Source: Flavobacteriales bacterium
GTDB lineage: Bacteria > Bacteroidota > Bacteroidia > Flavobacteriales_F > PHOS-HE28
DNA: 46,978 nucleotides
Direction: 5' to 3'
Assembly: GCA_040383865.1 (NCBI GenBank)
Contig: JBEICT010000001.1
Span: 1 to 46,978 of the forward strand
In this document: piece after piece, positions 5,018 through 46,491 of the stretch
How positions within the stretch are numbered: position 1 is the stretch's first letter
Layout of the letters: each line of letters opens with the position of its first letter
Position numbers and translations under genes: made by a program
The notes under the pieces: generated by a model
The model's database searches: none
What the model was told of the DNA's origin: nothing
What the model saw: the letters and a program-made list of their open reading frames with translations, nothing else

Positions 5018-5493
5018 GCATACACTGGAAGGTCCGATCATTCGGTGAGCTGAGCACGATCGAGCTCCACGATATCCTTCGCCTGCGGGTGGATGTGTTC
5101 GTGGTGGAGCAACAATGCCCTTACGCGGAAGTGGATGGCCAGGACCCGACCGCCTTGCATGTGATCGGCACCGATGAGCGAGGTGCGGTCGGTGCCTACG
5201 GACGCATTCTGCCCGCATTGCCGGATGAATTACCGCACATTGGCCGGATCGTGATCCACCCGGACCACCGTGGCAAAGGCCTTGCGCACCAGCTCATGGA
5301 CAGGATGCTCGCGGAACTTCGTTCACGATATGGAAGCGACCGGTCCATGCTTGCGGCACAGGCCCACCTGGAGGGGCTCTATGCGAGGCATGGATATCAT
5401 CGTATCGGCGACATCTATGTGTGGGATGGAATACCCCATGTGGACATGGAGCGCTTGGCCGGGGGAAGGACCCACGTCAGCGGAGCAACGTGA
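5014..5493 (+). CDS. elaA: GNAT family N-acetyltransferase, ElaA-like
   Basis: 159 aa. LRLRVDVFVVEQQCPYAEVDGQD, AAQAHLEGLYARHGY and WDGIPHVDM are colinear with E. coli ElaA as I remember it. An ATGA overlap joins it to the addA stop. Confidence 0.75.
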   Translation: MSIHWKVRSFGELSTIELHDILRLRVDVFVVEQQCPYAEVDGQDPTALHVIGTDERGAVGAYGRILPALPDELPHIGRIVIHPDHRGKGLAHQLMDRMLAELRSRYGSDRSMLAAQAHLEGLYARHGYHRIGDIYVWDGIPHVDMERLAGGRTHVSGAT

Positions 5494-7588: not shown

Positions 7589-7656
7589 GGGGCGACCTTG
7601 ATGATCTGAAGATAGTTGTTCGGTGTTCGCCATCATCGTCTGTACGAGGAACGGGG

Positions 7657-9516: not shown

Positions 9517-9561
9517 GATGTGTAGACCGAAGAATGCGATCCGGCGTTGCCCCAAGGTAGC

Positions 9562-9837
9562 TTATACGGGGCAAATGGCCTCCCATTCCGCTCTATCAAC
9601 GATCTGGTAAACGCCTTCTCCTCCGTTCAACATCTCCTGGATACGGAGCATCTCGGGGTACATGGTGGCATGCACAGCGTATAAAAGCCATCGGGCCCCG
9701 ACCCGCTGAAGCTCCGTGAACCGGTCCGGCCCTTCGATCCGGTAATAGTGCCGCCCGTCCGCCATCCGCCGGTACTGCGGCCATGCGGCTTCTGCCAGGT
9801 CAGGCCCGGCTCCGTTATCTTCCGCCCACTTGCTCAT
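9562..9837 (-). CDS. small hypothetical protein (91 aa; alternative start ATG 9765 gives 67 aa)
   Basis: This is the tail of ORF 9562..10050. The upstream part is antisense to the AddB-like gene. Composition is protein-like (MADGRHYYRIEGPDRFTELQRVGARWLLYAVHATMYPEMLRIQEML...) and third codon positions are G+C-rich in this frame. There is no signal peptide and no family I recognise. It stops 6 nt from the longest ORF of adhesin paralog 2. Confidence 0.45.
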   Translation of the reverse strand: MSKWAEDNGAGPDLAEAAWPQYRRMADGRHYYRIEGPDRFTELQRVGARWLLYAVHATMYPEMLRIQEMLNGGEGVYQIVDRAEWEAICPV

Positions 9838-21209: not shown

Positions 21210-22301
21210 CTATTTCATGTTGTTGACGGCCTCCTTGTCCAAGGGGTCCTCATCGCCATCGTCGAAGGGCTTGGCCACCACGTAGGTCCGCCAGCGATCC
21301 AGCACCACCTGCATGTCCGCAGGCAAAGGGCTCTCGAAGTGCATGCGCACCCCCGATATGGGATGGTCGATATCGAGGGTGCGGGCATGAAGCGCCTGTC
21401 GAGGCAAGGCGCGGAAGCAATTCTCAACGTACTGCTTGTACTTGGTGAAGGTGGTGCCCTTCAGCACGCGGTCACCACCATAAGCCGCATCATTGAACAA
21501 CGGGTGGCCGGTCCATTGCATGTGGACACGGATCTGATGTGTACGGCCCGTTTCCAGCTTGCATTCCACCAACGTCACGTAACGGAACCGTTCCAGCACA
21601 CGCCAACGGGTCGTGGCGGGCTTGCCCTGCTCGCCTTCCGGGAACACGGATTGCACGGTTCGGTCCCTCACGCTTCTGCCGATATGCCCTTCGATCACGC
21701 CCTCATCCTCCGCGAAGTCGCCCCAGACCAGTGCATTGTATCGCCGGTCGCTGGTACGGTCGAAGAACTGCCGGGCCAGGTGGGTGAGCGCCTCCTCGGT
21801 CTTGCCCACGACCATGACACCACTGGTATCCTTGTCCAGCCGATGCACCAATCCCGGTCTCGGGATCTCCGCCCCGGGCGTGGAAGGCAGCTTGCCGAAA
21901 TGGAACAATAGCGCGTTCACGAGCGTGCCGGTCCAGTTGCCATGACCGGGATGCACCACGAGTCCCGCCTGCTTGTCGATGACCAGGATGTGCTCATCCT
22001 CGTACAGGATGTTCAACGGGATGTCCTCGGGCACCAGCTCAAGCTCGCGCTGGGGATAAGGCAGCACGATGCTGATCTCATCGCCTGGCTTCACCTTCTG
22101 GCTCGGCTTCGCTGCCTTGCCGTTCACCAGGACATTGCCTGCCCTGGCCGCCACCTGGACCCGGTTCCGCGATGTGTTCGCCAACCGATCGAACAGGAAC
22201 TTGTCCAGCCGGATCAGCGACTGCTTGGGGTCGCAGACAATCCGATGATGTTCATACAGTTCCTGCTCATCGACCAGGCTAACGGACCCTTCGTTGTTCA
22301 T
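21210..22301 (-). CDS. rluD: RluA/RluD-family 23S rRNA pseudouridine synthase with S4 domain
   Basis: 363 aa. The catalytic motif is HRLDKDTSGVMVVGKT, followed by RRYNALVWG and THQIRVHM. Confidence 0.88.
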   Translation of the reverse strand: MNNEGSVSLVDEQELYEHHRIVCDPKQSLIRLDKFLFDRLANTSRNRVQVAARAGNVLVNGKAAKPSQKVKPGDEISIVLPYPQRELELVPEDIPLNILYEDEHILVIDKQAGLVVHPGHGNWTGTLVNALLFHFGKLPSTPGAEIPRPGLVHRLDKDTSGVMVVGKTEEALTHLARQFFDRTSDRRYNALVWGDFAEDEGVIEGHIGRSVRDRTVQSVFPEGEQGKPATTRWRVLERFRYVTLVECKLETGRTHQIRVHMQWTGHPLFNDAAYGGDRVLKGTTFTKYKQYVENCFRALPRQALHARTLDIDHPISGVRMHFESPLPADMQVVLDRWRTYVVAKPFDDGDEDPLDKEAVNNMK

Positions 22302-24550
22302 CAGCGTTGGATGAGGAGCTTTTCCTGGGCCACCAGGTTGCCGGATGCATTGAGGACCCGCACGATATGCAGGCCTGGAGCAAGGCCTGTCGAAGAGATC
22401 GGCGCTCCGGAGCGGTACGGGGCGTGCAACACCTCGCGCCCCAATGCATCCATCACCACCACATGGCCAGCGGCAAGTTCCTCCGTGGTGCGGATCGTGA
22501 ATTCTCCGTCCGCCGGGTTCGGGTACAGCGACGTGTCCTCCTCCCGGGAGGGCTCTTCAACACCGGCAAAAGGGTCCAATGCGGCCACGAACACGGGTCG
22601 CATCATCAACGAACCACTGAACGAGGTATTGGTGAACGCCCCTGTGGTGCGGTAGAAAATGCGGCTGGCGTTATCCCGGTTACGATCGAAGCCCAGGTTC
22701 ATCACCACATCGTTGGTCTGTGTCCATCCTATGTAAATGGTCCCTTCAACGTAGATGGTCGAGTCGAGCGGATACTCCACAAATCGATCGAGGCCGTCCA
22801 CCTTGTACTCGGGCGCGGAAAAGGAGAAGTTCTGGTGCTGTATCACCTCTGGTGAAAGGCCTTTCCAGACGGTGATCAGGAAAGAACCGTCCGCGGGCGG
22901 GGCGCTTGGCGGCGGGTTCAACGAAGGGCTGAAATACATGCGGATGGCCCGAAGCGAATCACCCTGGGCCAGATCGAAGCGGTAGGCCAGCTTGCCCCCC
23001 GAACTGTTCAGGCCATAGGTCTGTTCCGCCGAGCCATCGTCATAGGCGTAGTAGTTGCTGATCTCCTGGATGAAGGTGATGGTATCATTGTACCGATTGA
23101 TGTCGGGCGTGGTATTGGCCCAATACTTCACGCGCCAGAAAGCCGCATCCGTGGACAGCGACGGTTCGTACTCGAAGTTGTTCGTGCCCGAGTTGATGGG
23201 GTGCGTACTGGCGAAGGTGCTCGACGCATTGCCCGAGGTGTTCAACCCGTTCTCGAAATTCTCAAAGCCACTGCCGTTCTCCTCCCTGGCCTGCATGCCG
23301 AAACGGATGAAGCGGTCCTCCACGTCAAGGTTCTTCAGATCTACATTCGTCTGTTCCAGCATGAACGAGGCCGGTGACAGGCCGTAGGTAGTGAACGGCA
23401 TCGACGTGTAGTTGGAGAGCAATGTGCTCTCGGGCATCACGTAGGCCACGTCCACCAATCGGGTGTCGTCGAAACTGCGCTGCGCCGCCAAGCGCACATA
23501 GTCGATGTGCCAGTGATCGAAGGCTCCGCTCAGGGTGGCGTAGTTCAGGAAGCGCATTCGGAATCCGTTCTTGAGATACCTGAACTGCTTGATGGGGATG
23601 AGCACCTGCTGGAACGGGGCCTGGGCCACATAGGGAGTGCGCCACACGCGGTACCACGTGTCCTCCTCAGGAGCATAGAACTCCAGCACCAGGCTGTCCT
23701 GCGGTTGAATGAACGAATCACCACTGCGCCCCTGAGCCTGGTAGAAGAAGCTCAGGTAAATGGAATCGCTTGCCGGGAATTGTAGATCGATGGGCACCGA
23801 CGTGAGGCGGTCGGCAATCCCATAACTGGTGTAGGTAATGAGATCGTACGGAGCGCCAGTACGAGAGAGCCCATCGAACGTGGCCACCCCGATGGTGGGT
23901 GGGTCGATGGGAAAAGTGCCGTTCACATGCACATTATCATCCTCCCAGAGGATCAACGGGACCACTGAATTGTCCGGCCTGATGTAAGTGCGCGTATCGG
24001 CAGGCACCGCATAAACCAGCAAGGAGTCCTGCAACAACAGAGGCGGTAAAAGGTCCAACGTATCCGGCGACGGGGACTGGATGGTATCGAAGATATTGTA
24101 GGGCGGCCAGGCATCAACGACAGTCTCTGTTGGCGGATACACGGCCAGATCGCGCTCCGTGAGAACGATCAACGGCAGCGGGGTACGCACCGTGACCGGA
24201 GGCTCCTGCATGTCAGTGACATACAGGAAGGTGGTATCGGTGGCGAAGCGCATATCGGGTTCCGATACGCCCAGCGCCTCAAGCCTGTAAATGGTCTCCG
24301 AGAGCGTGACCCCGAGGTCATCAGGCTGGGCCCAGCGCTTGCGGGTCCGGTCCACGGAAAAATCATCCGCTATGGGCAGGGTCTGCGGAAGGTACTGGTA
24401 GATGTAGTGCGTGTTCAGCCCATTCGACTTGGCAGCCTCGTCGACCATGGCCACGCCGCCGCGTATGGCACGCACCACCTCGCCCTGTGCTTGCGAAGCG
24501 ATCGGGCCCAGCAGGGATGCCAGGAAAAGCAGGGTCCTATTCAATGACAT
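22301..24550 (-). CDS. large secreted protein of unknown function with T9SS type-A C-terminal sorting domain
   Basis: The ORF track gives 22301..24646. The likely start is ATG 24550 (MSLNRTLLFLASLLGPIASQAQ), 12 nt after the PASTA-gene stop. The C-terminus is SLYPNPADGEFTIRT...VVVMDALGREV...GLHIVRVLNASGNLVAQEKLLIQR. Its stop overlaps the rluD ATG by 1 nt (TGATG). Confidence 0.8.
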   Translation of the reverse strand: MSLNRTLLFLASLLGPIASQAQGEVVRAIRGGVAMVDEAAKSNGLNTHYIYQYLPQTLPIADDFSVDRTRKRWAQPDDLGVTLSETIYRLEALGVSEPDMRFATDTTFLYVTDMQEPPVTVRTPLPLIVLTERDLAVYPPTETVVDAWPPYNIFDTIQSPSPDTLDLLPPLLLQDSLLVYAVPADTRTYIRPDNSVVPLILWEDDNVHVNGTFPIDPPTIGVATFDGLSRTGAPYDLITYTSYGIADRLTSVPIDLQFPASDSIYLSFFYQAQGRSGDSFIQPQDSLVLEFYAPEEDTWYRVWRTPYVAQAPFQQVLIPIKQFRYLKNGFRMRFLNYATLSGAFDHWHIDYVRLAAQRSFDDTRLVDVAYVMPESTLLSNYTSMPFTTYGLSPASFMLEQTNVDLKNLDVEDRFIRFGMQAREENGSGFENFENGLNTSGNASSTFASTHPINSGTNNFEYEPSLSTDAAFWRVKYWANTTPDINRYNDTITFIQEISNYYAYDDGSAEQTYGLNSSGGKLAYRFDLAQGDSLRAIRMYFSPSLNPPPSAPPADGSFLITVWKGLSPEVIQHQNFSFSAPEYKVDGLDRFVEYPLDSTIYVEGTIYIGWTQTNDVVMNLGFDRNRDNASRIFYRTTGAFTNTSFSGSLMMRPVFVAALDPFAGVEEPSREEDTSLYPNPADGEFTIRTTEELAAGHVVVMDALGREVLHAPYRSGAPISSTGLAPGLHIVRVLNASGNLVAQEKLLIQR

Positions 24551-25364
24551 CCAACGTATCATTCGTGATGTAGCGGGAAGGGTCGTTCCATCCGCTCTGG
24601 GGGCGAAGGCCGGCCGTATCAGTGGTAAGCCAGAGGTCGATGACACTTCCCATGGCGATGCGATTGTTCGGGTCCACGGCAGGTGATTGCCGGTACACCC
24701 TCGCCAACGTGGAATCGACCTTGCTATTGCACCCGTTGCAATCGACCACTATGCCCGGGTTCAGCGAGGCCATGTTAAGCACCAACGAGACATCGGCCTG
24801 GGTAAGTCCGCGGAGATCAGGCACAGGGACTCGTTCTCCTTTCTCTCCACCTCCCAGCACCAAGGTAATGGCCTCTCCCCTACGGATCTTGTCATTCGCT
24901 GCTATCGGCAAGCCCTTGTAGCGCTGTTCGATCACACAATCCAAACAGGGGTCGGGACGATACTGGAGCTCCTTCACCTTCAACCCTACGATCTCCAGCA
25001 CGGACATCGCTTGCCGCTTGGAAAGGTCCACAAGCCCCGGCATGTCGATCATCTTGGGCTGGTTGGCATTCAGCACCAGGTACACCTTGCGTCCGGGCTT
25101 CACGTCTATTCCGGGATCGGGGTCCTGGTCCACCACACTGCCTTTGGGAAGGTCGTCCGTGTACACCGAGTCGATGACCAAGGCCCTGAGGTCGCGCTTC
25201 TCCAACATGACCGTGGCCTCCTCCAGGGTCAACCCTTGCAGTTCGGGGACACGCATGGCCACGCCATGTCTGGTATAGAGCCGCAACCAGCTCCACCCTC
25301 CGAACAGGAGCACGGCCACCACGAGCAGTGGGAGGATCAGGCTGATGGAACGACGCTGGGCCAT
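24537..25364 (-). CDS. PASTA domain-containing membrane protein (no kinase or transpeptidase domain)
   Basis: 275 aa. The N-terminal TM segment is ISLILPLLVVAVLLFGGW. Three PASTA-like repeats follow (VPELQGLTLEEATVMLE.., MPGLVDLSKRQAMSVLE.., VPDLRGLTQADVSLVLN..). Confidence 0.8.
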   Translation of the reverse strand: MAQRRSISLILPLLVVAVLLFGGWSWLRLYTRHGVAMRVPELQGLTLEEATVMLEKRDLRALVIDSVYTDDLPKGSVVDQDPDPGIDVKPGRKVYLVLNANQPKMIDMPGLVDLSKRQAMSVLEIVGLKVKELQYRPDPCLDCVIEQRYKGLPIAANDKIRRGEAITLVLGGGEKGERVPVPDLRGLTQADVSLVLNMASLNPGIVVDCNGCNSKVDSTLARVYRQSPAVDPNNRIAMGSVIDLWLTTDTAGLRPQSGWNDPSRYITNDTLDVIE

Positions 25365-27080: not shown

Positions 27081-27122
27081 GCAGCGAAGATGGGCAGTGA
27101 CAGGCAATGCGACGCACGGGGG

Positions 27123-27130
27123 TACATTTG
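27123..27130 (+). promoter_or_regulatory. -7 promoter box TACATTTG (exact TAnnTTTG) upstream of the probable flippase start
   Basis: It lies 33 nt downstream of ATG 27090 and 19 nt upstream of in-frame GTG 27150. If functional, it argues for the GTG start and a 69-bp divergent intergenic region with rdgB. Confidence 0.3.
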
Positions 27131-27149
27131 GCCGATCCATCCGACCATC

Positions 27150-28562
27150 GTGCCGATACGTCGTTCCATCAACAAGGTCCGCGAGGACGTACGTCGGATA
27201 CGCACACCGGGCAGCTTTGCGCGCAACTCGTTCCATGTGCTTTCGGGCAATGCGCTGGCCATGGCAAGCCAGCTCATTCTCACCCCGCTCATCGCCCGTA
27301 TCTATGGGCCGGAGGCGTACGGTCTGTATGCCTTGTACATGGCCCTGTCCATGAACCTGGCCGCCATGAGCGACCTGGGTTATGCGACCGCCTATGTGCT
27401 GCCACGGGATGAAGAACGCTTCCTGCACCTGGTACGGTTCAATATCGGCCTCGCACTGGTACTGGGGTTGCTTGCGACCGGCCTCTCCTTCATGCCCGGC
27501 CTGGTCTATTCGGTGTTCCCCGACTGGCAGGTACTGGGAGGATGGTTGCATTGGGTCGGCCCCGCGTCCGCCTTGTATGCACTATCCGTGTTCTTCACAC
27601 AATGGCTCACACGCGTCAAGGAGTTCAAGCGCAGTGCGTTCACAGGGGCCGCCATCGACCTTTCCATGCGCCTGTTCAACGTGGGGTTCGGCTGGCTCGC
27701 GAAGGCCCCGAGCTACGGCCTCATGCTTGGCGACCTGCTGATCCGCGCACTGATCATTCCGGTCTACCTCTGGTCACTTGGGCCTCACGGCCTTGGCCGC
27801 CTGTTCGCATGGCGACCATGGCGAGAGTTGCGCTCTGTATTGTTCGAATACAAGCGCTATCCGCTCCTCGTGTTCCCCGAACGATGGGTCAGTCTGCTCG
27901 GCATACAACTACCCACCTTCCTGCTGGCCGCTGACCTTTCCATGGTGGGCCAGTATGGGCTCGGTGCCAGTTTGATGTTGATACCGCTCAGATTGTTGGG
28001 GTTTTCCTTCAGCACAGTGTACCTGCAAAAGGCGGCCGAGATCGTACATCATGCCCCCGATGAACTTCGCCGCCTGACCCATGGATTGTACAACCGGCTT
28101 TTTTGGGTGGGGCTCGGCCCATTCCTGTTGCTCACCTTCTTTGCCGATGAGGCCTTTGCACTCCTGTTCGGTGAGGAATGGCGAAATGCGGGCGTGATCT
28201 CCGCATTCATCGGCGGCTATTTCTTCTTCCGCCTGCTCACCGACCCCATGGCCTCCTTGTTCAACGTGAAGAGAAGGGAGCATGTGATGTTGATCTTCGG
28301 AATGGTGATGCTTGGTGTACGGGCGGCGGCCATGTTGGCGACCGCTGCAATGGGCCATGGTTCGGAGGTGGTCATTCTCGTGTACGCCTTGCTCAGTTGG
28401 GCAGGCCAGCTCGTGCTCTCCGTGGTGCTGCTCAATACGGCCGGCATTGCCGGGTTCAGGGTCACACTGCGGTCGCTTGGACTTGTCGCGCTGTTCTCGT
28501 TCCTGCTCGCACTGGTGAGGTTCGCGATACTAGGTACCTGGTGGCCTTGGTTCACCAACTGA
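27150..28562 (+). CDS. Wzx-like oligosaccharide/polysaccharide flippase (MOP superfamily)
   Basis: The ORF is 27090..28562 (490 aa). It is polytopic, with about 12 or more hydrophobic segments. The N-terminal FARNSFHVLSGNALAMASQLILTPLIARIYGPEAYG is typical of polysaccharide-biosynthesis flippases. I prefer GTG 27150 as the start because ATG 27090 lies only 9 nt from the divergent rdgB ATG and a -7 box sits at 27123. The start is uncertain. Confidence 0.75.
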   Translation: MPIRRSINKVREDVRRIRTPGSFARNSFHVLSGNALAMASQLILTPLIARIYGPEAYGLYALYMALSMNLAAMSDLGYATAYVLPRDEERFLHLVRFNIGLALVLGLLATGLSFMPGLVYSVFPDWQVLGGWLHWVGPASALYALSVFFTQWLTRVKEFKRSAFTGAAIDLSMRLFNVGFGWLAKAPSYGLMLGDLLIRALIIPVYLWSLGPHGLGRLFAWRPWRELRSVLFEYKRYPLLVFPERWVSLLGIQLPTFLLAADLSMVGQYGLGASLMLIPLRLLGFSFSTVYLQKAAEIVHHAPDELRRLTHGLYNRLFWVGLGPFLLLTFFADEAFALLFGEEWRNAGVISAFIGGYFFFRLLTDPMASLFNVKRREHVMLIFGMVMLGVRAAAMLATAAMGHGSEVVILVYALLSWAGQLVLSVVLLNTAGIAGFRVTLRSLGLVALFSFLLALVRFAILGTWWPWFTN

Positions 28563-35250: not shown

Positions 35251-36762
35251 TCAAGGTTCTTGTGAACGCCCCTGCCACATGGCAGGAACGCCTGCAGCAC
35301 GCGCCTTGGTCGCAGAAGACCCTTTACGCACCTTCTCGGCAGGCGGTCCTGCGTCTCCCCAGAGGTAGTCCTGGATCCTGAACCGCCTGTTCATCATGGC
35401 GCAGTACAACCGCTTCCTGTTCAGATGGTCCATGATGTACAGACCGGCGACAAGGAACGGCACGAAGGGGATCTTGAACCGCACCAATGCGCCGAAATTC
35501 GGCGTCGAGATGCCGATCATGAACCCAAGCAGCATGGCGAACAGCATGCAGGTAAGGATGAGCGGATTACCGTACAATGCACGCAGGAAGAACCAGATGC
35601 GCGTTCGCCACAGTAACAGAAAGGTCATCACGAGCAACCAGAAATTCTCCAGACCGCTCAGCGCCGTGACCACGCTCCGGGTCTCCCACAGATAAGGTCT
35701 GAAAAAGGCGGCGTTCACCGCACCGGGGAACTTGCTCAACAAGTTGGGCATCGTGCCGTCCAGTTCCCCGATATCGAAATAATTGCTGCCGTATTGCTCG
35801 GAACGCTTCATATCGGATTGAATCACCACGACGGTCTGCCCGGCCTTCTCGAGGGAGAACTTGTCCAGCTTATCACCCAGCGAGGAAAGCACGAAGAACG
35901 AACCTCCCAACATCACCACGAGAACCGCTGGTAGCAAAATGAACTTGAACAGTACGTTCTTCAACCGCGCCACCCGGAAATACAATACCCAAAGCATGGT
36001 GACGGGGATCACCGACATGAAGATGTACGGCTTCATAACAATGAGCAAGGTCGCGCTGAGGAGGAGCCCGATGATATTGAAGACGTAGTTCCGCTTCTTG
36101 AAAAGCACTTCGTCAGCACAGTGGAACCACCAACATGCAGCGCTCAAGGTGAAGGTGTCCTTCATGATGGCGGAGCCCCAGAACACCACGGATGGCATGT
36201 ACAGGAAGGCGATCGCGAACTTCCCTGCGAGCTGCGGATAGTAGGAAACAAAGGTCCGGTAGCAACGCCAGATGCCAATGTACCCAATGCTGGAGAGCAT
36301 CAGGGTGGTGATGAGGTAACTATTGAACGTGAAAAGCACGATCGGGCTGATGAGCCGTATCACGAAGAACGACCGGCTATCGAAGTACATATAAGCGTAG
36401 GGATAGCCCGTTTCCAGATTGAACTTGTTCAGGTTGGCCTGGTCATTGGGGCCGAAGAGAATGCTCAGGAAATCGAACAGGTCGTATCTGGCCATGTTCC
36501 CCATGGAAACGGCCGAATAGAAGTACATAATGGTATCTCCACCCCGGTAGTAGTAGTAATAGATCATGCTGAAGGCGATCCCCCCCAACACCTTCGCGAA
36601 CAACCCCCAGAGGAAGTACTTGTATTCTGGGGCCTTCTTGATCGCCAGGTTCTTCTGTCGGGCGAAATAGATGTACATCAAGATGAGGTACACCGCACCC
36701 AGCACCCACTCCCAGTAGGCAATGTCCACTTCCCCGTAATGGTAGACCCAGATCAAGGGCAT
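35251..36762 (-). CDS. polytopic membrane protein, candidate Wzy/EpsG-type polysaccharide polymerase
   Basis: 503 aa with many hydrophobic segments. A Tyr-rich first loop, YYYYYRGGDTIMYFY, resembles the EpsG-type R..G.D...Y motif as I recall it. There is one large hydrophilic loop (DKLDKFSLEKAGQTVVVIQSDMKRSEQYGSNYFDIGELDG). G+C is clearly lower (31/60 and 29/60 in lines 35881 and 35941). It sits in the polysaccharide locus. Confidence 0.5.
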   Translation of the reverse strand: MPLIWVYHYGEVDIAYWEWVLGAVYLILMYIYFARQKNLAIKKAPEYKYFLWGLFAKVLGGIAFSMIYYYYYRGGDTIMYFYSAVSMGNMARYDLFDFLSILFGPNDQANLNKFNLETGYPYAYMYFDSRSFFVIRLISPIVLFTFNSYLITTLMLSSIGYIGIWRCYRTFVSYYPQLAGKFAIAFLYMPSVVFWGSAIMKDTFTLSAACWWFHCADEVLFKKRNYVFNIIGLLLSATLLIVMKPYIFMSVIPVTMLWVLYFRVARLKNVLFKFILLPAVLVVMLGGSFFVLSSLGDKLDKFSLEKAGQTVVVIQSDMKRSEQYGSNYFDIGELDGTMPNLLSKFPGAVNAAFFRPYLWETRSVVTALSGLENFWLLVMTFLLLWRTRIWFFLRALYGNPLILTCMLFAMLLGFMIGISTPNFGALVRFKIPFVPFLVAGLYIMDHLNRKRLYCAMMNRRFRIQDYLWGDAGPPAEKVRKGSSATKARAAGVPAMWQGRSQEP

Positions 36763-38669: not shown

Positions 38670-39512
38670 GTGCTGCCCACAGGAACGGATGCGCTCATCG
38701 ACCTCGCCCTGCGTGAGGACATCGGAGACGGGGACCACACTACGCTTTCCACCATACCACCTGATGCCCGAGGTGCGGCCCGTCTGCTCGTAAAGGACCA
38801 GGGTGTCCTTGCCGGTGTGGAACTGGCGCAGGCCATCGCCCACCGGTTCGACCCCGACCTCCATTTCAAGTTGTTCCTCCAGGACGGTGCGACCATTTCA
38901 AAGGGTGATGTGGCCTTTACCATAATGGGCAGTTCCCGCTCCATCCTCATCGTGGAACGCCTGATGCTGAACTTCATGCAGCGCATGAGCGGCATAGCGA
39001 CCTTGACCCACCGCTTCGTGCAGGCCATAGAGGGCACTGGCTGCCGTATACTCGACACCCGTAAGACCACGCCGGGCCTGCGGGCCATTGAGAAATGGGC
39101 CGTTCGTATCGGAGGCGGCCACAACCACCGCCATGGGTTGTACGACATGGTGATGATCAAGGACAACCATGTGGACATGGCCGGTGGCATCCCGCAAGCG
39201 ATCGCTGCTGCACGGGCCTACCAGGTCCAACATGGAATGGATCTGCCCATCGAAGTGGAAACACGCTCCATGTCCGAAGTGGAACAAGTGCTCGCCACGG
39301 GTGGTGTGCAGCGCATTATGCTGGACAACTTCACGCCGGAACAGTTGCGCACCGCCGTCCAGCGTATCGCAGGGCGCTTTGAGACCGAAGCATCGGGAGG
39401 CATCACGTTGGAAACGGTCAGGGCCTATGCCGAGACCGGTGTCGATTTCGTATCGGTGGGTGCGCTAACACATAGTGTACCGAGCCTCGACCTGAGCCTG
39501 AAGGCCCTTTGA
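38670..39512 (+). CDS. nadC: nicotinate-nucleotide diphosphorylase (carboxylating)
   Basis: 280 aa with a GTG start. Motifs are ALREDIGDGDHTT, LDTRKTTPGLRAIEKWAVRIGGGHNHRHGLYDMVMIKDNH and MLDNF. Confidence 0.92.
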   Translation: MLPTGTDALIDLALREDIGDGDHTTLSTIPPDARGAARLLVKDQGVLAGVELAQAIAHRFDPDLHFKLFLQDGATISKGDVAFTIMGSSRSILIVERLMLNFMQRMSGIATLTHRFVQAIEGTGCRILDTRKTTPGLRAIEKWAVRIGGGHNHRHGLYDMVMIKDNHVDMAGGIPQAIAAARAYQVQHGMDLPIEVETRSMSEVEQVLATGGVQRIMLDNFTPEQLRTAVQRIAGRFETEASGGITLETVRAYAETGVDFVSVGALTHSVPSLDLSLKAL

Positions 39513-39514
39513 CC

Positions 39515-40477
39515 ATGGTGCAGCGGTACAAACGCAAGCTGCTCTATTCCCGCATGTTCCGCAGGCTGCTCGGATGGGCCAAGCGGATCAAATTGCCCGG
39601 CTTCGAGGGCTTCAGCCTCTACGAGATCTCCCGGTTCTTCTTCTCGGCCTTGTTCACCGGCCGACTTGTGGACCGCGCTTCGGCGATCGCGTTCAAGGTC
39701 TTCATGTCCTTCTTCCCGGCCGTGATCGTGCTGCTCACGCTCATTCCCTACGTCCCCATCCCCGACTTCCAGTTGCGCTTGTTGGAGACCTTCCAACAAA
39801 TGCTGCCGAACGAGGTGTACCAGTTCATCGAAGGCACCCTGCACGACCTGCTCGTGAAGAAACACGGCACGCTCCTCTCTGTGAGCTTCATTGTGGGCAT
39901 TTACCTGGCCAGCAACAGCATCGATGCCGTTCTCGACGGATTCAGTGGCAGCACCAACCTTACCAAATGGCATAGCGCATTGAAACAACGCCTGCTCAGC
40001 CTGGGCCTGTTGTTGTTGCTGACCTTGCTCGTGGTGCTGTCCATTCCAGTGCTGGCCTTCAGCGGCATCATCATCGGCAAGCTCCATGCAATAAGGTTCT
40101 TCGCCAGTGAGCTGGAGGTTTGGGCCGCATTGGCCATCAAATGGTTCGTGTCCATCCTGCTGGTGATGGTGGCCGTATCGCTGTTGTACACCGCCGGTGA
40201 TCCAGCGGCCAAGCGGTTCAAGACCTTTACCCCGGGTTCCATCCTGGCGGTGTTCCTGATCCTACTGGTCTCACAGGCCCTCGCCTTCGTATTCGACAAC
40301 ATCACGGACTACAACGCCCTGTACGGCTCCATAGGCGCCATACTGGCCGTGCAGCTATGGATCTATTTCAACATGATCGCGCTGCTGATCGGTTACGAGT
40401 TGAACACCAGCATCGCCATCGCCCGGCACCACCGGAGCAAGCACCTGCATGTGCCCGTGGTGAACGAGACAGTGTAA
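39515..40477 (+). CDS. YihY/BrkB family membrane protein
   Basis: The ORF track starts at TTG 39509, and the first ATG is 39515 (MVQRYKRKLL). RASAIAFKVFMSFFPAVIVLLTLIPY, YGSIGAILAVQLWIYFNMIALLIGYELN and six hydrophobic segments fit YihY. Confidence 0.85.
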   Translation: MVQRYKRKLLYSRMFRRLLGWAKRIKLPGFEGFSLYEISRFFFSALFTGRLVDRASAIAFKVFMSFFPAVIVLLTLIPYVPIPDFQLRLLETFQQMLPNEVYQFIEGTLHDLLVKKHGTLLSVSFIVGIYLASNSIDAVLDGFSGSTNLTKWHSALKQRLLSLGLLLLLTLLVVLSIPVLAFSGIIIGKLHAIRFFASELEVWAALAIKWFVSILLVMVAVSLLYTAGDPAAKRFKTFTPGSILAVFLILLVSQALAFVFDNITDYNALYGSIGAILAVQLWIYFNMIALLIGYELNTSIAIARHHRSKHLHVPVVNETV

Positions 40478-40499
40478 CGAAGGGATAACTTGGGCTCCC

Positions 40500-43400
40500 A
40501 TGCGGCCCCTGCTCACCTTCCTGCTGATCGCGCACATCCTGCCTTGCCTGGCACAACGGTTCGATGCCAGGCATCCGCCGAACACCTACCGCAATGCCGA
40601 CAACCCCCACTACTGGAAGAACCGGCCACCTTATGCGAACTATTGGCAACAGGATGTACACTACCTGATCAAGGCGCGCTTGGACGATGAGCGGGATGTG
40701 GCCAATGGCGAGCTCACGCTCTACTACCACAACAACTCGCCCGACACGCTCCGGCACGTCTTCTTCCATCTCTACCAGGAAGCCTACAATGCAGGTTCGT
40801 ACGCCGACCTGATGGAGAACGGCACCAAGGACCGAGGAGGCCGTGACAGTATTGAGGCAGGCACGGACATTCACCAGCTGCAGGCCAATGGGTCCGAGGT
40901 GCGAACGGAACAGGACAACACAGTGCTCAAGGTCTGGCTGAACGACCCCCTGCCCCCCGGCGAAAGGGTCACCTTCCGCATCACCTTCACCACGCACTGG
41001 TCAACGCGCGTGGACCGGCGCATGAAGTTGTTCAAGGCATGGGGGACGAAGCATTACGACGGCGTGCACTGGTATCCCCGCATGGCCGTGTACGACCGGA
41101 AATTCGGATGGGACACCCAGCAGCACCTGGGAAACGAACTATACGGCGACTTTGGCACCTTCGATGTGGAACTGGACCTGCCGCACCACTACGTTGTGGA
41201 GGCCACCGGATGGTTGCAGAACCCGGACGAGGTCATGCCGCCCGACCTGCGCAAGCGATTGGACATCGTAAACTTCAAGGACAAGCCCTGGAACGAGAAG
41301 CCCTCCACCGTGATCGCACCAGACAACACCAAGCGCAAGGTCTGGCGCTACCACGCCGAGAACGTCCATGACTTCGCCTTCACGGCCGACCCCACGTACC
41401 GAATTGGCGAAGCCGAGTGGAACGGCGTAAAGTGCGTTGCCGTGGTTCAGGAACCGCACGCCAGCGGTTGGCAGAACGCCGCCGACTACTGCGCCAAGGT
41501 CATTGAGGCGCACAGTACCTCCTTCGGCATGTACGCCTACCCGAAAATGGTGGTGGCCGATGCGCGCGATGGCATGGAATACCCCATGCTCACCCTGGAC
41601 GGTGGACGCGACCCCGACTATCGCGGGCTGTTCGTGCACGAGATCGGCCACAACTGGTACTACGGCATGGTGGGCAACAACGAGACCTACAGGGCCTTCC
41701 TCGATGAAGGATTCACGCAATTCCTGACCAGCTGGGGACTCGAACAGATCGATGGCGATACCCTGGTGAGCGACCCGCCCCGTAACACCTACCAGGCCCG
41801 ATACACGAAACCGGAACTGGTGCGTGAGAGCGAGGTGTATAACAGCTACCAGTACGACGCAGTGCGCGACCGACTGCCCCCGTTGAACACCCATAGCGAT
41901 GAGTTCGGATACTGGCAGGCCCGTGGATACGGCGGCTACGGCCATGCCTACTCCAAAACGGCCACCATGCTGTACAACCTCCAGTATGTCGTGGGCGACT
42001 CGCTGTTCCTCTCGGCCATGCAACACTACTTCGACCAATGGCGCATGTGCCACCCGTATCCGGAGGATATGCGACAGAGCTTCATCGACCACACGGGCAT
42101 GGACCTAAATTGGTTCTTCGACCAATGGCTGGAGACCGGCAAACGCATCGACTATGCGGTGAAAGGCGTCAAGAACCGCTACCGAAACGGGGGACAGGAG
42201 ATCCGCCTGCGACGCAACGGCGACCTTCACATGCCCATCGACCTGCGCGTGATCGCCAGGGATGGCAGCGTACTTGACCTCTACATCCCCAACACTTGGG
42301 ACCAGAAACGCACCAATGCCGTTGTTCTTCCCCGATGGATCGGCTTCGACGACCTGCAACGCGACCACATCGTTCGTGTGGACATCCCCTCGGGCATTGA
42401 GCAGGTGATCATTGACCCCACCGACCGCCTGGCCGATGCGTACAAGGTCAATGACCGTTTGGGCCTGCCCATCAGCGTGGACCTGGACCACCACGTGCGC
42501 AACAGTCCCGACCGACGCACCTATGAGGCCTTCATGCGCCCCGACCTCTGGTGGAACGGATACGATGGGGTGAAAGCCGGTGTGCACTTCAACAGCAGCT
42601 ACATGAAGTACAAACACCGCGTGCATTTCAGTGCGTGGCTGAACACCGGCATGGGACAGTATCTGCCACCAACGAACACCTCGGCAGCGGTGGACAGTAT
42701 TCCAGGCAACACGGACACCGGTTTTGACGCGCTATCGTTCAACTTCCGCTATGAGAACGGCATTGAGAAGGTGCTGAAAGGCGCATCCGTGTTCGTTCAT
42801 GCCCGTGCCTTGGACGGACTGCAGCGATACGGTGGCGGCTGGCGGTGGGAAATGCCCAATGGTCGGACCACGGCCCAGGCGGAGCTCCTGTACTTCATCC
42901 GACGGGATAGTGCGGACCTGACCTACCTGCTGTATCCCGAACAATGGGAACTGGACCGCACCAACGGGGCCATTGACCTGAGCGTACGCCACCGCTATTC
43001 CCATGACCATGGCACAGGCGACCTGAAACTGGAAATGCGCAGCAGTGCGGTAGGCAGTGCCGCAGGGTATGGCCAGGTGCGGCTTACTGCGGTGAACGTG
43101 AACGAACTGGGGCCCATCCAAGTGCGGACCCGGGGCTTCGGCCAGTACGGTACTGGTGCCACGCCCCGCGAAAGCGCTCTGTACATGGCCGGTGCATCGC
43201 CCGAGGAAATGATGGAGAACAAGTATGTGCGCAGCATCGGCTTCGTACCATACGACTGGCTGGGCTATTCCGACGGCCTCAACCGTTTCCAACAGGGCGG
43301 TGGCCTGGGCTTGCGCGGCTATGCCGGATACCTCGCTCCCGAAGTGGACCCCTCGAACGGGCAGACCGTGTTCACGCACTTCGGCAACACCGGTCTTTCG

Positions 43401-43721
43401 GCCAGTGCGGAGATCGACCTCGACGGATTGGTTGATTGGCGCCCGCGCAAAGTGGCGCGCTACCTGCACTTGGACATTTACCTGTTCGGCGATGCGGGCA
43501 CCATGGGTTACCGCAACAGCAAAGGCCACTTGGAACTGGCGCCCATACGTGCCGATGCCGGTGCAGGTGCCGCGTTCACGATCAAACGGTTCGGTCCGCT
43601 GGTCGATATCAAACCGCTGACCATCCGTTTCGACGTACCGTTCCTGATCACCGCCCTGCCCGCCACCGAACAGGAACATATGGCCTTCCGCTATGTGGTG
43701 GGCATTGGGCGCAGCTTCTGA
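40500..43721 (+). CDS. M1-family zinc metallopeptidase fused to a C-terminal Omp85-family-like outer-membrane beta-barrel
   Basis: 1073 aa with signal peptide MRPLLTFLLIAHILPCLAQ. Peptidase motifs are GMEYP (GxMEN-like), HEIGH (41637..41651) and the third-ligand Glu 18 residues later (41706..41708). The C-terminal ~400 aa carry GGGLGLRGY (43311..43322 = LRGY), FGDAG (43485..43499), ADAGAGAAF and a terminal FRYVVGIGRSF ending in Phe. Confidence 0.8.
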   Translation: MRPLLTFLLIAHILPCLAQRFDARHPPNTYRNADNPHYWKNRPPYANYWQQDVHYLIKARLDDERDVANGELTLYYHNNSPDTLRHVFFHLYQEAYNAGSYADLMENGTKDRGGRDSIEAGTDIHQLQANGSEVRTEQDNTVLKVWLNDPLPPGERVTFRITFTTHWSTRVDRRMKLFKAWGTKHYDGVHWYPRMAVYDRKFGWDTQQHLGNELYGDFGTFDVELDLPHHYVVEATGWLQNPDEVMPPDLRKRLDIVNFKDKPWNEKPSTVIAPDNTKRKVWRYHAENVHDFAFTADPTYRIGEAEWNGVKCVAVVQEPHASGWQNAADYCAKVIEAHSTSFGMYAYPKMVVADARDGMEYPMLTLDGGRDPDYRGLFVHEIGHNWYYGMVGNNETYRAFLDEGFTQFLTSWGLEQIDGDTLVSDPPRNTYQARYTKPELVRESEVYNSYQYDAVRDRLPPLNTHSDEFGYWQARGYGGYGHAYSKTATMLYNLQYVVGDSLFLSAMQHYFDQWRMCHPYPEDMRQSFIDHTGMDLNWFFDQWLETGKRIDYAVKGVKNRYRNGGQEIRLRRNGDLHMPIDLRVIARDGSVLDLYIPNTWDQKRTNAVVLPRWIGFDDLQRDHIVRVDIPSGIEQVIIDPTDRLADAYKVNDRLGLPISVDLDHHVRNSPDRRTYEAFMRPDLWWNGYDGVKAGVHFNSSYMKYKHRVHFSAWLNTGMGQYLPPTNTSAAVDSIPGNTDTGFDALSFNFRYENGIEKVLKGASVFVHARALDGLQRYGGGWRWEMPNGRTTAQAELLYFIRRDSADLTYLLYPEQWELDRTNGAIDLSVRHRYSHDHGTGDLKLEMRSSAVGSAAGYGQVRLTAVNVNELGPIQVRTRGFGQYGTGATPRESALYMAGASPEEMMENKYVRSIGFVPYDWLGYSDGLNRFQQGGGLGLRGYAGYLAPEVDPSNGQTVFTHFGNTGLSASAEIDLDGLVDWRPRKVARYLHLDIYLFGDAGTMGYRNSKGHLELAPIRADAGAGAAFTIKRFGPLVDIKPLTIRFDVPFLITALPATEQEHMAFRYVVGIGRSF

Positions 43722-43726
43722 GCATC

Positions 43727-44146
43727 ATGTGCCGGCTGGCGCTCCTTCCCTTTCTGATGCACGCGTTCATTCTCTGTGCACAGCCGCCCGATGCCACCGT
43801 GCTGGGTCGTTGGACCACGGTGGACGACAACTCCGGAAAACCTCGCAGCGTGGTGGAGATCACCATCACCAACGGCATGCTCAGCGGTCGCATCCTGGAC
43901 CTTTATGACAAGACACATTTGCAGAAGGTGTGCGACAAATGCCCGGGCGACCGCAAGAACGCACGGATCGTCGGCCTGGAGATCATCCGTGGCATGAAGG
44001 CCGATGGAAACGCCTGGGCGGAAGGCACCATACTGGACCCCGAGACCGGTAATGTCTACGACTGCAAGATGTGGTTGGAGAACGGAAAGCTGATGGTGCG
44101 CGGCTACGTGGCCTTCTTCTTCCGGACGCAGGTCTGGGTGAGGTGA
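43727..44146 (+). CDS. DUF2147 domain-containing secreted protein
   Basis: This is the tail of ORF 43436..44146, starting at ATG 43727 (MCRLALLPFLMHAFILCAQ). GRWTTVDDNSGKPRSVVEI...CDKCPGDRKN..IVGLEII.G...GTILDPETGNVYDCKMW...LMVRGYV..FFRTQVW follows the DUF2147 pattern. It starts 5 nt after the peptidase stop. Confidence 0.75.
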   Translation: MCRLALLPFLMHAFILCAQPPDATVLGRWTTVDDNSGKPRSVVEITITNGMLSGRILDLYDKTHLQKVCDKCPGDRKNARIVGLEIIRGMKADGNAWAEGTILDPETGNVYDCKMWLENGKLMVRGYVAFFFRTQVWVR

Positions 44147-45282: not shown

Positions 45283-46491
45283 ATGAGAGCGTTCGTCATC
45301 CTGACCATATCCCTGCTCGTCATTCGAACATCAGCGCAGACATCATGGGAGCAACAGGCATCATGCCCAGGGTACCCACGATGGGGAGTTGTCTGCTTTG
45401 ACATCAATGGGATCGGCTACATGATCAGCGGGAGGAGCAGCACCATTGACCTGGATGAGGTCTGGGCCTACGACCCATTGTCTGATTCGTGGACCGAACG
45501 CGCATCGCTGCCAGGCGTTCGTCGTGTTGCCTGTGCATTCTCCATTGGCGGCAAAGGGTACGTCGTGGGCGGCCTGTTTGGATCCTCCAGTATCAGGGAC
45601 GACCTATGGGAGTACGACCCCATCTCGGACTCCTGGACCCAGAGGACAGGTCTTCCCGGACCACCTCGGTATGGATCCACTGCATTCGTTCAGAATGGGA
45701 TCGGCTATGTCCTCGGCGGAGGCACAGGTGGCGGGGACGGCCCCTTCATTTCCGAACTATGGGCCTATGACCCTGTAACGGATGAATGGTCCCCCCGCGC
45801 TCCTATTCCCGATCAAGGCCGGGTTGGAGCCTCATCATTCACCGCGAACAACACATGCTACGTGTTTGGCGGTCGGCAGGAGGATCAGTCCATGTCCAAT
45901 GAGCTCTGGGCTTATTACCCGGGCACGAACTCGTGGGAGATGCGGGAGCCTCTACCAGCTGATGGCCGCCATTATGCACGGGCATACTCCGTGTTGGGTC
46001 GCGGAGTGATCCTATCCGGGCAGAACGGCACTGGCTCGTTATCGGATGGATGGGTCTATTCACCTTGGTCGGACAGTTGGTTGCCAATAGAGGACTATCC
46101 CGGTGATGGAGGCTGGAGCGGCGCTCAGTTCGCGCTGAATGAACGGATCTTCGCAGGGCTGGGGCAGACCAGCGGCTCCTCCTTTATCGATCTATGGGAA
46201 CTGAAGGAAATTCCGATCGGTGTTTCGGAGAACCATACGCCGTATGAGCTCGAGGTGTATCCAACAGTGTTAGCTGGCGGTGGATCAGTGACTATTCGAT
46301 GTACTTTCTCCAAGAACCAAGACATCGCGATGATGCTCACCGACACACAAGGTCGGCGTGTGGCCTTCCCGCTCAGATCGTTCGACCAGAACACTTTCCA
46401 GCTTCCTGCCGTGACACCAGGGACCTATCTACTGATAATCTCCATCGACGGATATTCCACTCGAAGCCAAAAGATCCTGGTCATTCCCTGA
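45283..46491 (+). CDS. Kelch-repeat beta-propeller protein with T9SS type-A C-terminal sorting domain
   Basis: 402 aa with signal peptide MRAFVILTISLLVIRTSAQ. About six Kelch-like blades are visible (VWAYDPLSDSWTERASLPG, LWEYDPISDSWTQRTGLPG, LWAYDPVTDEWSPRAPIP, LWAYYPGTNSWEMREPLP, each followed by G.GYV.GG-type strands). The C-terminus is LEVYPTVLAGGGSVTIR...MMLTDTQGRRV...GTYLLIISIDGYSTRSQKILVIP. Confidence 0.8.
   Translation: MRAFVILTISLLVIRTSAQTSWEQQASCPGYPRWGVVCFDINGIGYMISGRSSTIDLDEVWAYDPLSDSWTERASLPGVRRVACAFSIGGKGYVVGGLFGSSSIRDDLWEYDPISDSWTQRTGLPGPPRYGSTAFVQNGIGYVLGGGTGGGDGPFISELWAYDPVTDEWSPRAPIPDQGRVGASSFTANNTCYVFGGRQEDQSMSNELWAYYPGTNSWEMREPLPADGRHYARAYSVLGRGVILSGQNGTGSLSDGWVYSPWSDSWLPIEDYPGDGGWSGAQFALNERIFAGLGQTSGSSFIDLWELKEIPIGVSENHTPYELEVYPTVLAGGGSVTIRCTFSKNQDIAMMLTDTQGRRVAFPLRSFDQNTFQLPAVTPGTYLLIISIDGYSTRSQKILVIP

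Follow-up and report, generated by a model that had tools for sequence, protein, structure and literature searches.

The window analysed here is a 46,978-nt stretch of DNA from the Flavobacteriales bacterium GCA_040383865.1 (contig JBEICT010000001.1, forward strand), to which all coordinates refer unless a homologous locus is named. It contains a rightwards-transcribed gene (40500..43721, stop codon included) whose product appears to join an M1-family zinc peptidase to a C-terminal outer-membrane beta-barrel of the Omp85 type, and which is flanked by genes coding for a BrkB/YihY-family inner-membrane protein and a DUF2147 protein. The list of open reading frames (ORFs) shows the gene intact, with 1073 uninterrupted residues as described in the initial annotation of this DNA, and every motif position given in that annotation was correct when recomputed. 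Three antisense ORFs of 209–317 aa overlap the gene (40368..40997, 41139..42092, and 42732..43679, all on the minus strand); these are shadow ORFs as expected at 60% GC, with no evidence that they are genes. All features of the fusion gene described below are on the plus strand.

The protein starts with a predicted signal peptide (residues 1–18; 40500..40553) in which MRPLLTFLLIAHILPCLA is followed by the mature N-terminal Gln19, with the predicted cut between CLA and Q. By its appearance the signal is of the signal peptidase I type, residues 2–17 form a helix in the AlphaFold2 model, and among 54 full-length homologues Q19 is invariant and A18 nearly so, all in agreement with the signal peptide claimed initially. 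A 'Q-rule', by which the signal peptidase I substrates of Bacteroidota start with Gln, is put forward in one account of these proteins (PMC10653852), and from its sequence the protein would be such a type I substrate with the N-terminal Gln typical of the phylum. A lipoprotein anchored via Cys16 was considered and ruled out, since conservation extends to A18 and Q19 but not to the Cys. A Pfam scan detects no C-terminal domain for type IX secretion (T9SS) on the protein, such as is carried by the products of several neighbouring genes.

Residues ~20–650 are an M1 gluzincin peptidase by Pfam and by fold. The Pfam model Peptidase_M1 (PF01433) matches residues 378–543 with 49.2 bits against a cut-off of 27.7 (E 6.8e-13), and the closest solved sequence is that of the alanine aminopeptidase 7v9n (E 7e-4); the NCBIfam equivalog models reach only 14–23 bits on this part of the protein, against cut-offs near 600–760. 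A full-length AlphaFold2 model built from a 54-sequence alignment has a predicted local distance difference test score (pLDDT) of 82.8 and a predicted template modelling score (pTM) of 0.82, and in Foldseek it matches IRAP, ERAP1, ERAP2, Toxoplasma APN, and tricorn factor F3 with E-values down to 2e-20. These alignments run over ~650 columns and span three domains. The first is an N-terminal beta domain (~residues 50–317; 40647..41450) that is all-beta in the model and lies within the IRAP, ERAP1, ERAP2, and F3 alignments, and the second is a thermolysin-like catalytic domain (~residues 318–545; 41451..42134) identified by the Pfam and 7v9n matches and by its motifs. The third is a beta-sandwich (~residues 552–652; 42153..42455) at the position of M1 domain III, with modelled strands at 552–558, 566–572, 580–586, 591–596, 622–627, and 633–638 and pLDDT >90.

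The catalytic domain contains the zinc motif HEXXH-X18-E, consisting of HEIGH (residues 380–384; 41637..41651) and the third ligand Glu403 (41706..41708), which lies exactly 18 residues past the second His (H384), as had been claimed. At the GxMEN position the sequence reads D-G-M-E-Y-P (residues 357–362, with GMEYP at 358–362; 41571..41585), such that the Gly, Met, and Glu are present and invariant and the Asn is replaced by Tyr. H380, E381, H384, E403, the block from G358 to M363 (GMEYPM), and Tyr484 are invariant in the 54 homologues. Because the catalytic residues are all invariant, the module is probably active as an enzyme. An exopeptidase or aminopeptidase specificity is likely rather than that of an endopeptidase, and falls short of certain because Tyr replaces Asn in GxMEN. 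Together with the Pfam score and the IRAP/ERAP1 fold match, these residues substantiate the M1 catalytic set that the initial annotation read from residues ~20–650.

No helical domain IV (the ERAP1_C or ARM-like cap that is typical of M1 enzymes, although not universal) is predicted after residue 545 in the full-length model. The chain instead passes from the beta-sandwich straight into the barrel, which occupies the domain IV position. The matches listed by Foldseek for the full-length model are M1 enzymes only, so that a model of the barrel by itself was needed.

This barrel-only AlphaFold2 model (residues 654–1073, from a 105-row alignment with identities down to 32%) has a pLDDT of 93.4 and a pTM of 0.89, and consists of 16 long antiparallel strands; DSSP assigns 16 strands in both models. 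The predicted barrel comprises residues 675–1073 (42522..43718), an assignment to which Foldseek and covariation also contribute. BamA or TamA accounts for each of the top 50 matches in a Foldseek search of the PDB (E 3.2e-9 to 2.3e-7, probability 1.00, alignments of 412–492 columns), with template modelling (TM) scores of 0.51–0.59 after normalisation to barrel-only entries (among them 4n74, 8us4, 9cs0, and 7r1v). Glycine is enriched in this part of the protein relative to the M1 part (11.6% versus 6.8%), in keeping with the Gly/aromatic-rich composition noted initially, but the aromatic residues are not.

The hallmarks of Omp85 barrels reported in the initial annotation are present, and in the right order. 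A 77-residue loop (loop 6, residues 887–963; 43158..43388) joins strands 11 and 12 and bears FQQGGGLGLRGYAGYLAP, including LRGY (residues 938–941; 43311..43322); both models, conservation, and couplings support this loop. FGDAG (residues 996–1000; 43485..43499), corresponding to the FxDxG 'lid-lock' partner motif, lies in the middle of strand 13, which spans residues 989–1005 (43464..43514) in both models. ADAGAGAAF follows at residues 1018–1026, and strand 16 ends with the beta-signal FRYVVGIGRSF and a terminal Phe (43686..43718), as judged from homologous C-termini. A loop 6 with (V/I/L)RG(F/Y) and an FxDxG 'lid-lock' motif in strand 13 is the arrangement described for Omp85 proteins (PMC11358297). 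The spacing between RGY and FxDxG is 58 residues and that between FxDxG and the C-terminus 77, compared with 43 and 58 in TamA and 78 and 72 in BamA.

Alignments of 73 and 105 sequences show no change at R939, F996, D998, and F1073, and little or none at G940, Y941, and G1000. R1071 is also invariant, and each of the 77 complete C-termini among the homologues finishes with [RK]xF, so the C-terminal Phe pointed out initially is general among the relatives. Taking both parts of the protein together, H380, E381, H384, E403, G358–M363, R939, G940, F996, D998, G1000, and F1073 are invariant or nearly so across 54–105 homologues, with motif conservation persisting down to 33–40% identity in the barrel region, and the motifs are therefore not chance matches.

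A partly independent check on the fold comes from mean-field direct-coupling analysis of 288 barrel sequences (effective number 196). In-register antiparallel ladders are seen for 12 strand pairs (1-2, 2-3, 3-4, 4-5, 7-8, 8-9, 9-10, 10-11, 11-12, 12-13, 13-14, and 14-15), for example as the pairs 793–828, 794–827, 796–825, and 798–823, each summing to 1621; no coupling between strands 1 and 16 is seen in these sequences. Residues 907–949 of loop 6 couple to strands 14–16 and to loops 2 and 4, consistent with loop 6 being folded in beneath a dome, against the C-terminal wall. The 16-stranded barrel anticipated for residues ~640–1073 was thus obtained by structure prediction, and the couplings suggest that the LRGY loop lies in the lumen, as also anticipated.

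Sequence searches do not recognise this barrel. Residues 641–1073 of the window protein match no Pfam or NCBIfam model at E up to 1, nor any Pfam model at E up to 10, and a search of PDB sequences with the barrel profile finds nothing at E up to 10. When 73 family members were scanned against Pfam at E up to 10, one matched ShlB/FhaC weakly (E 0.0096), and the other hits were noise such as Nanovirus_C8. Comparison by hhalign of the barrel profile with a 90-sequence TamA barrel profile is not significant (E 0.25), and neither are global and local comparisons with single E. coli BamA, TamA, and Bacteroidota Omp85 sequences (E 0.06–0.9 across the hhalign runs). An exhaustive phmmer search of 1.84 billion representatives returned only 336 clusters (50% identity) at E 1e-3, a small family to which all of them belong; those that are named are all from Bacteroidota. 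A POTRA domain is likewise missing, with no Pfam match and no beta-alpha-alpha-beta-beta pattern in the ~100 residues that precede the barrel, which form an all-beta sandwich. Of the Pfam families expected initially, Peptidase_M1 is therefore found, and Omp85 and POTRA are not.

Although the hhalign alignments with TamA and BamA are not significant, they do pair up the conserved blocks in the correct order. NRFQQGGGLGLRGYAGYLAP lies opposite the TamA loop-6 segment, YLFGDAG opposite VFVDSG of TamA and FFWDMG of BamA, DAGAGAAF opposite GTGVGVRW of TamA, and VVGIGRSF opposite YIGLGPEL of TamA. We considered whether a 16-stranded barrel might have come to resemble Omp85 by convergence, serving as a plain anchor or peptide pore, with LRGY and FGDAG coincidental. 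No sequence method is significant against the Omp85 families, and the Foldseek matches have identities of 10–15% and TM scores of ~0.44–0.59, all of which would accord with convergence. On the other hand, four motif blocks (loop 6, FxxGGxxx[LIV]RG[YF]..P; strand 13, FxDxG; strand 14, GxGxG; C-terminus, IGxG..F) follow one another as in Omp85 proteins and lie on equivalent structural elements with their key residues invariant, the top 50 structural matches are all Omp85 with no other 16-stranded barrel among them, and one family member does match the ShlB/FhaC model at E 0.0096. Convergence thus seems very improbable. We conclude, with convergence as a minor alternative, that the predicted barrel belongs to the Omp85 superfamily as a very divergent member. 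Since the Pfam Omp85 and POTRA models give no significant match, the assignment rests on fold and motifs; the protein has the structure and the motifs of an Omp85 and lacks a match to the sequence models.

The fusion is not confined to this genome. A search with the full-length protein identifies at least 120 clusters with lengths of 947–1103 aa (all but one at least 1055 aa) and identities of 59–97%, and nearly all of the clusters among the matches listed span the whole query. Such names as these clusters have are "aminopeptidase N" or "M1 family metallopeptidase", with no annotation of the barrel. With one genome scanned per species, at least 587 relatives of the M1 part were obtained, and we examined the best 80 of these loci. 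All 80 are in metagenome-assembled genomes assigned to Flavobacteriales, Bacteroidia, or Chitinophagales, and residues 1–1073 are covered at 47–91% identity save in a few loci truncated at contig ends. Because the full-length form is present in nearly all of these best 80 loci over such a range of identity, the fusion would appear to be both old and common in uncultured Bacteroidota. The carriers number in the hundreds and derive from wastewater, freshwater, and soil metagenomes.

The C-terminal region also occurs unfused, a point raised by the initial annotation. At least six clusters of ~410–440 aa (P0142, P0145, P0215, P0216, P0340, and P0365) encode the barrel behind its own signal peptide. 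In P0340 and P0365 the signal peptide (ending in ALFA and SASA, respectively, and followed in both cases by QD) and ~40 residues precede a barrel with all of the motifs. P0340 (441 aa) has 16 member sequences, and five of the contigs were read. In two of the loci its gene directly follows the BrkB gene (L083, 5001..6326; L084, 4452..5777), with the BrkB stop overlapping the start of the barrel gene by 4 nt, and there is therefore no room for an M1 module. As judged from these genes, the barrel is evidently an autonomous module that also exists alone.

Two other loci with apparently separate M1 and barrel genes were rejected as examples of this organisation, L082 reflecting a scaffold gap of Ns (4953..4962) and L081 (2823..6182) a probable frameshift. 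Fusions split by such gaps or frameshifts give rise to misleading stand-alone 'hypothetical protein' barrel entries in public assemblies. Approximately 2 kb 3' of the barrel-only gene, both L083 (8287..9672) and L084 (7738..9123) encode a protein of 461 aa that matches POTRA and Omp85 models of Pfam weakly; this is a conventional Omp85 paralogue without a significant sequence match to the barrel under study.

We found no description of an M1-Omp85 fusion in the literature. The architecture is widespread rather than rare, and yet undescribed; of the condition under which its novelty was expected to fall, that it be both common and characterised, the first half holds and the second does not. The fusion is a new variant within the Omp85 superfamily.

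On which side of the outer membrane the enzyme resides is suggested by the junction between the two parts (residues 655–674; 42462..42521), which is defined by the models and by couplings and consists of a short strand (658–662) and a 12-residue linker to strand 1. The linker (663–674) has a pLDDT of 91–94 in the full-length model, and strand 658–662 is also present in the barrel-only model, the junction segment being kept in the stand-alone barrel homologues. In the barrel-only model the connections with the parity of loop 6 have lengths of 3, 29, 2, 21, 7, 78, 11, and 15 residues, and those of the other parity 3, 7, 5, 2, 2, 15, and 11 residues. Outer-membrane barrels have their long loops facing outward and their short turns in the periplasm. 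The N-terminus of strand 1 and the C-terminal Phe are on the short-turn side, and would therefore be periplasmic, as in every Omp85.

In the direct-coupling analysis, the pairs 660–677 and 658–674 connect the junction strand to the start of strand 1. A full-length run with a reduced alphabet gave one interdomain pair above noise, 448–669, which connects the catalytic domain to the linker and does not fix the barrel face. No pore-spanning helix or long linker is predicted in the full-length model. A long linker or helix crossing the pore is a feature of type Va autotransporters and of FhaC. The barrel is moreover unlikely to be a dedicated self-exporter because it also exists without a passenger, and this family shows no variation at the lid-lock residues by which BamA and TamA are kept closed. 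Taken together, loop parity, the short linker, the couplings, the barrel-only forms, and the invariant lid-lock residues speak for docking of the M1 module at the barrel's periplasmic mouth, a placement to which topology lends a modest balance of probability. A periplasmic position of the enzyme more broadly, including the quality-control variant discussed below, we consider fairly probable.

The initial annotation instead raised a type Vd-like secretion architecture with a surface-tethered or self-exported aminopeptidase. The barrel, with help from the machinery for beta-barrel assembly (BAM), would move its own M1 passenger to the cell surface for display or release, thereby feeding peptide and amino-acid uptake. 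The order of passenger and barrel is indeed that of type Va and Vd autotransporters, and precedents exist both for export of a fused enzyme by an Omp85-type barrel in PlpD (PMC4104836) and for a surface aminopeptidase autotransporter, AaaA, in Pseudomonas aeruginosa (PMC3426542). In addition, an M1 module without the capping domain IV may have a cleft that admits larger substrates, and the host is a T9SS-bearing member of the Bacteroidota that secretes many proteins. Such a system would nonetheless have to operate without a POTRA domain and with a linker that is neither helical nor long (12 well-ordered residues between the beta-sandwich and strand 1), and would have to carry a three-domain zinc enzyme of ~630 residues past invariant loop-6/strand-13 lid-lock residues of the sort that close BamA and TamA. 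The junction is coupled to where strand 1 begins, and in the passenger-less homologues that have signal peptides of their own, a barrel dedicated to autotransport would have no job. Self-export is thus rather unlikely. With neither a patatin passenger nor a POTRA domain, the type Vd-like label is probably wrong, and the short linker, loop parity, junction couplings, and barrel-only homologues argue against a barrel dedicated to self-export.

The explanation that we consider best, and to which we give somewhat more credence than to its denial, is that the protein is an integral outer-membrane, periplasm-facing zinc aminopeptidase. Its parts are shown by the results above: a Sec signal peptide cut ahead of the invariant Gln19, a three-domain M1 module (the beta domain, a catalytic domain in which H380, H384, and E403 are the zinc ligands and E381 the general base, and the beta-sandwich), and, where other M1 enzymes have the helical domain IV, a POTRA-less 16-stranded barrel of the BamA/TamA type with LRGY in loop 6, FGDAG in strand 13, and a beta-signal ending in Phe. 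What these parts do together is inferred. The barrel would be inserted by BAM with both of its termini in the periplasm, and because only ~12 ordered residues tether the M1 module to strand 1 the enzyme would stay at the periplasmic mouth. The protein would then act as an outer-membrane-tethered aminopeptidase that trims the free N-termini of imported oligopeptides, or of unfolded polypeptides that reach the barrel, the latter serving as an anchor and possibly as a platform engaging substrates, rather than as a dedicated exporter of the enzyme.

Several considerations weigh against this proposal. Homology to Omp85 is not significant at the sequence level (Pfam, NCBIfam, the PDB profile search, and hhalign at E 0.25), and the Foldseek TM scores of the predicted barrel are moderate (0.44–0.59) with large root mean square deviations. 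The barrel face that bears the M1 module derives from topology rules and not from coordinates, and the order of N-terminal enzyme and C-terminal barrel is one that type Va and Vd autotransporters share. Approximately 17 extended residues could in principle span the pore, and the two couplings of strand 658–662 are mid-ranked and ambiguous in register.

The genes surrounding the fusion provide some further context. Immediately upstream is the BrkB/YihY-family inner-membrane protein gene (39509..40477, plus strand; Pfam Virul_fac_BrkB, E 4.8e-48), whose product is a possible partner, and the order nadC (quinolinate phosphoribosyltransferase), BrkB/YihY, and (M1-)barrel is found by tblastn in 47 of the 80 loci. 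In an iterative HMM search, 36 of the 47 loci for which the flanking sequence suffices have BrkB upstream and in the same orientation. This order extends down to ~48% identity and to the barrel-only loci, with the nadC-BrkB stretch preceding the barrel gene at 38670..40477 in the window, at 3471..5004 in L083, and at 2625..4455 in L084. The arrangement could reflect a functional link to the BrkB-family protein or merely an inherited gene order. We know of no established function for BrkB-family proteins.

These neighbours bear on another interpretation, in which the work is done by the barrel, acting as an insertase or translocase without POTRA in the manner of the 'noNterm' Omp85 proteins, and the M1 module is an accessory that trims or degrades the barrel's stalled or unfolded clients; the resulting envelope quality control might be comparable to that of the BepA protease at BAM, with the BrkB/YihY neighbour as a partner. 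Stand-alone forms of the barrel exist, and the short strand 16, in which a conserved Gly precedes the terminal Phe, resembles the TamA C-terminus (IGLG). BrkB is directly upstream in the 47 of 80 loci, including the barrel-only loci with their 4-nt overlap, but since the gene order also includes the housekeeping gene nadC it may be lineage history only. Periplasmic quality control has been proposed by Heinz and Lithgow for another enzyme-Omp85 fusion (PMC4104836). An aminopeptidase that removes single N-terminal residues is nonetheless a poor tool against stalled proteins, and most Bacteroidota periplasmic proteins are thought, according to the account of the Q-rule, to be N-terminally blocked by pyroglutamate (PMC10653852). 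We regard a quality-control function as improbable.

It is similarly doubtful that barrel and enzyme work as one coupled machine, in which the barrel caps the active site in place of domain IV and conducts polypeptide, across or at the outer membrane, straight to or from the cleft. This could take the form of import-coupled trimming of peptide N-termini, or of POTRA-less self-export amounting to a new type V subclass, possibly in conjunction with the BrkB/YihY neighbour; if true, it would represent a new functional class for the Omp85 superfamily.

Downstream, a gene encoding a 139-aa DUF2147 protein (43727..44146, plus strand; Pfam DUF2147, E 1.4e-28) begins 5 nt after the stop codon, and had been suggested as a candidate partner. 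DUF2147 is present within ~130 nt downstream in only ~22 of the 80 loci, nearly all of them relatives with at least 57% identity, and we discount it as a general partner in favour of a clade-specific neighbour.

The near-consensus −7 box reported 6 nt before the ATG is present (TAACTTGG; 40486..40493, plus strand), with one mismatch to the consensus TAnnTTTG. In 36 of 51 homologous loci a TAnnTTnG motif lies no more than 45 nt upstream of the start codon, compared with 85 of 2550 control windows (3.3%) from the same loci, and the intergenic sequence around the motif is not conserved. Because the exact consensus is found in the window at chance frequency (6 occurrences, with 6.3 expected), support for the motif comes from this conservation and not from the match itself. 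If used as a promoter element, it would imply a leaderless or near-leaderless transcript in the window.

Elsewhere in the window there are genes for three large secreted proteins with T9SS C-terminal sorting domains (5477..7753, 7657..9555, and 22301..24646, all on the minus strand), two with PKD repeats and CHU_C and one with Por_Secre_tail below the Pfam cut-off; these domains confirm that the host is a T9SS-bearing member of the Bacteroidota. A 402-aa secreted Kelch-repeat beta-propeller with a signal-peptide-like N-terminus (45283..46491, plus strand; several Kelch Pfam models, E down to 2e-28) was perhaps counted earlier among the T9SS cargo. A UvrD-like helicase with a C-terminal PD-(D/E)XK nuclease (1898..5017, plus strand) and a 910-aa PD-(D/E)XK protein (9830..12562, plus strand) look like an AddAB/RexAB-type helicase-nuclease pair with two of the T9SS cargo genes between them. 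Two ORFs of 490 aa (27090..28562, plus strand) and 503 aa (35251..36762, minus strand) have no Pfam match at E up to 1e-3.

Outer-membrane biogenesis (BamA and TamA) and type Vb and Vd secretion have Omp85 proteins at their core, and what such a protein does is defined by its N-terminal domains. In the family described here, POTRA is replaced by a complete and apparently active M1 aminopeptidase, and the M1 cap in turn by a membrane barrel. As in BamA and TamA there are 16 strands, a long loop 6 between strands 11 and 12 with (L/V/I)RG(Y/F), FxDxG in strand 13, and a C-terminal aromatic beta-signal, but the barrel is preceded by an M1 peptidase of ~630 residues and not by POTRA. The family thereby adds a divergent branch to the superfamily, and it is of moderate to high interest for outer-membrane biology with a direct bearing on annotation. 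Because the barrel is invisible to current sequence models, databases label these proteins only as "M1 family metallopeptidase", and its recognition moves the predicted location of hundreds of them from soluble to integral outer-membrane. POTRA-less 'noNterm' Omp85 proteins are known (PMC4104836), including those of Leptospira (PMC11358297). The stand-alone forms here likewise have ~40 residues before strand 1, although no Pfam model recognises the barrel, including the noNterm-associated DUF5982, and the role of a POTRA-less Omp85 barrel could readily be approached by comparing the fused forms with the barrel-only ones that occur in nature.

Fusions of Omp85 barrels to enzymes or other domains have been described with patatin (PlpD, type Vd), 'Metallo' (PF00149), and WD40 domains (PMC4104836). 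The type Vd proteins (PlpD of Pseudomonas aeruginosa and FplA of Fusobacterium) share with this family an N-terminal enzyme and a C-terminal 16-stranded Omp85-type barrel in one polypeptide. However, the type Vd passenger is a patatin-like lipase rather than an M1 peptidase, with no patatin match in the protein studied here, and one POTRA lies between passenger and barrel in type Vd and none in this case. Export of the enzyme has been demonstrated for PlpD, whereas the topology arguments here point the other way. As both the patatin passenger and the POTRA domain are lacking, we do not assign the protein to type Vd. It resembles the 'Metallo' and WD40-like Omp85 proteins in having a functional domain other than POTRA N-terminal to the barrel, the fused domain here being M1. 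The side on which the enzyme of such fusions acts, in periplasmic quality control or at the surface, was left open by Heinz and Lithgow in 2014 (PMC4104836). Their survey, a report in which the word 'peptidase' occurs 0 times, was seeded with Pfam Omp85 hits (PMC4104836); since this barrel escapes those models, the survey could not have found the family.

Among M1 enzymes, the module shares HEXXH-X18-E, a GxMEN-like GMEYP, and the domain I-II-III fold with PepN, ERAP1, ERAP2, IRAP, and tricorn factor F3, and differs from them in its very divergent sequence, in the change of the GxMEN Asn to Tyr, and in having a membrane barrel in place of the capping helical domain IV. AaaA is a surface-exposed protein with a passenger of the M28 family, a linker spanning the pore, and a 12-stranded classical autotransporter barrel. 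This type Va protein of Pseudomonas aeruginosa (PMC3426542) resembles the M1 fusion in that an aminopeptidase is covalently joined to a C-terminal outer-membrane barrel, and were the M1 enzyme also to be surface-exposed, the family would represent a new autotransporter class in a phylum otherwise reliant on T9SS.

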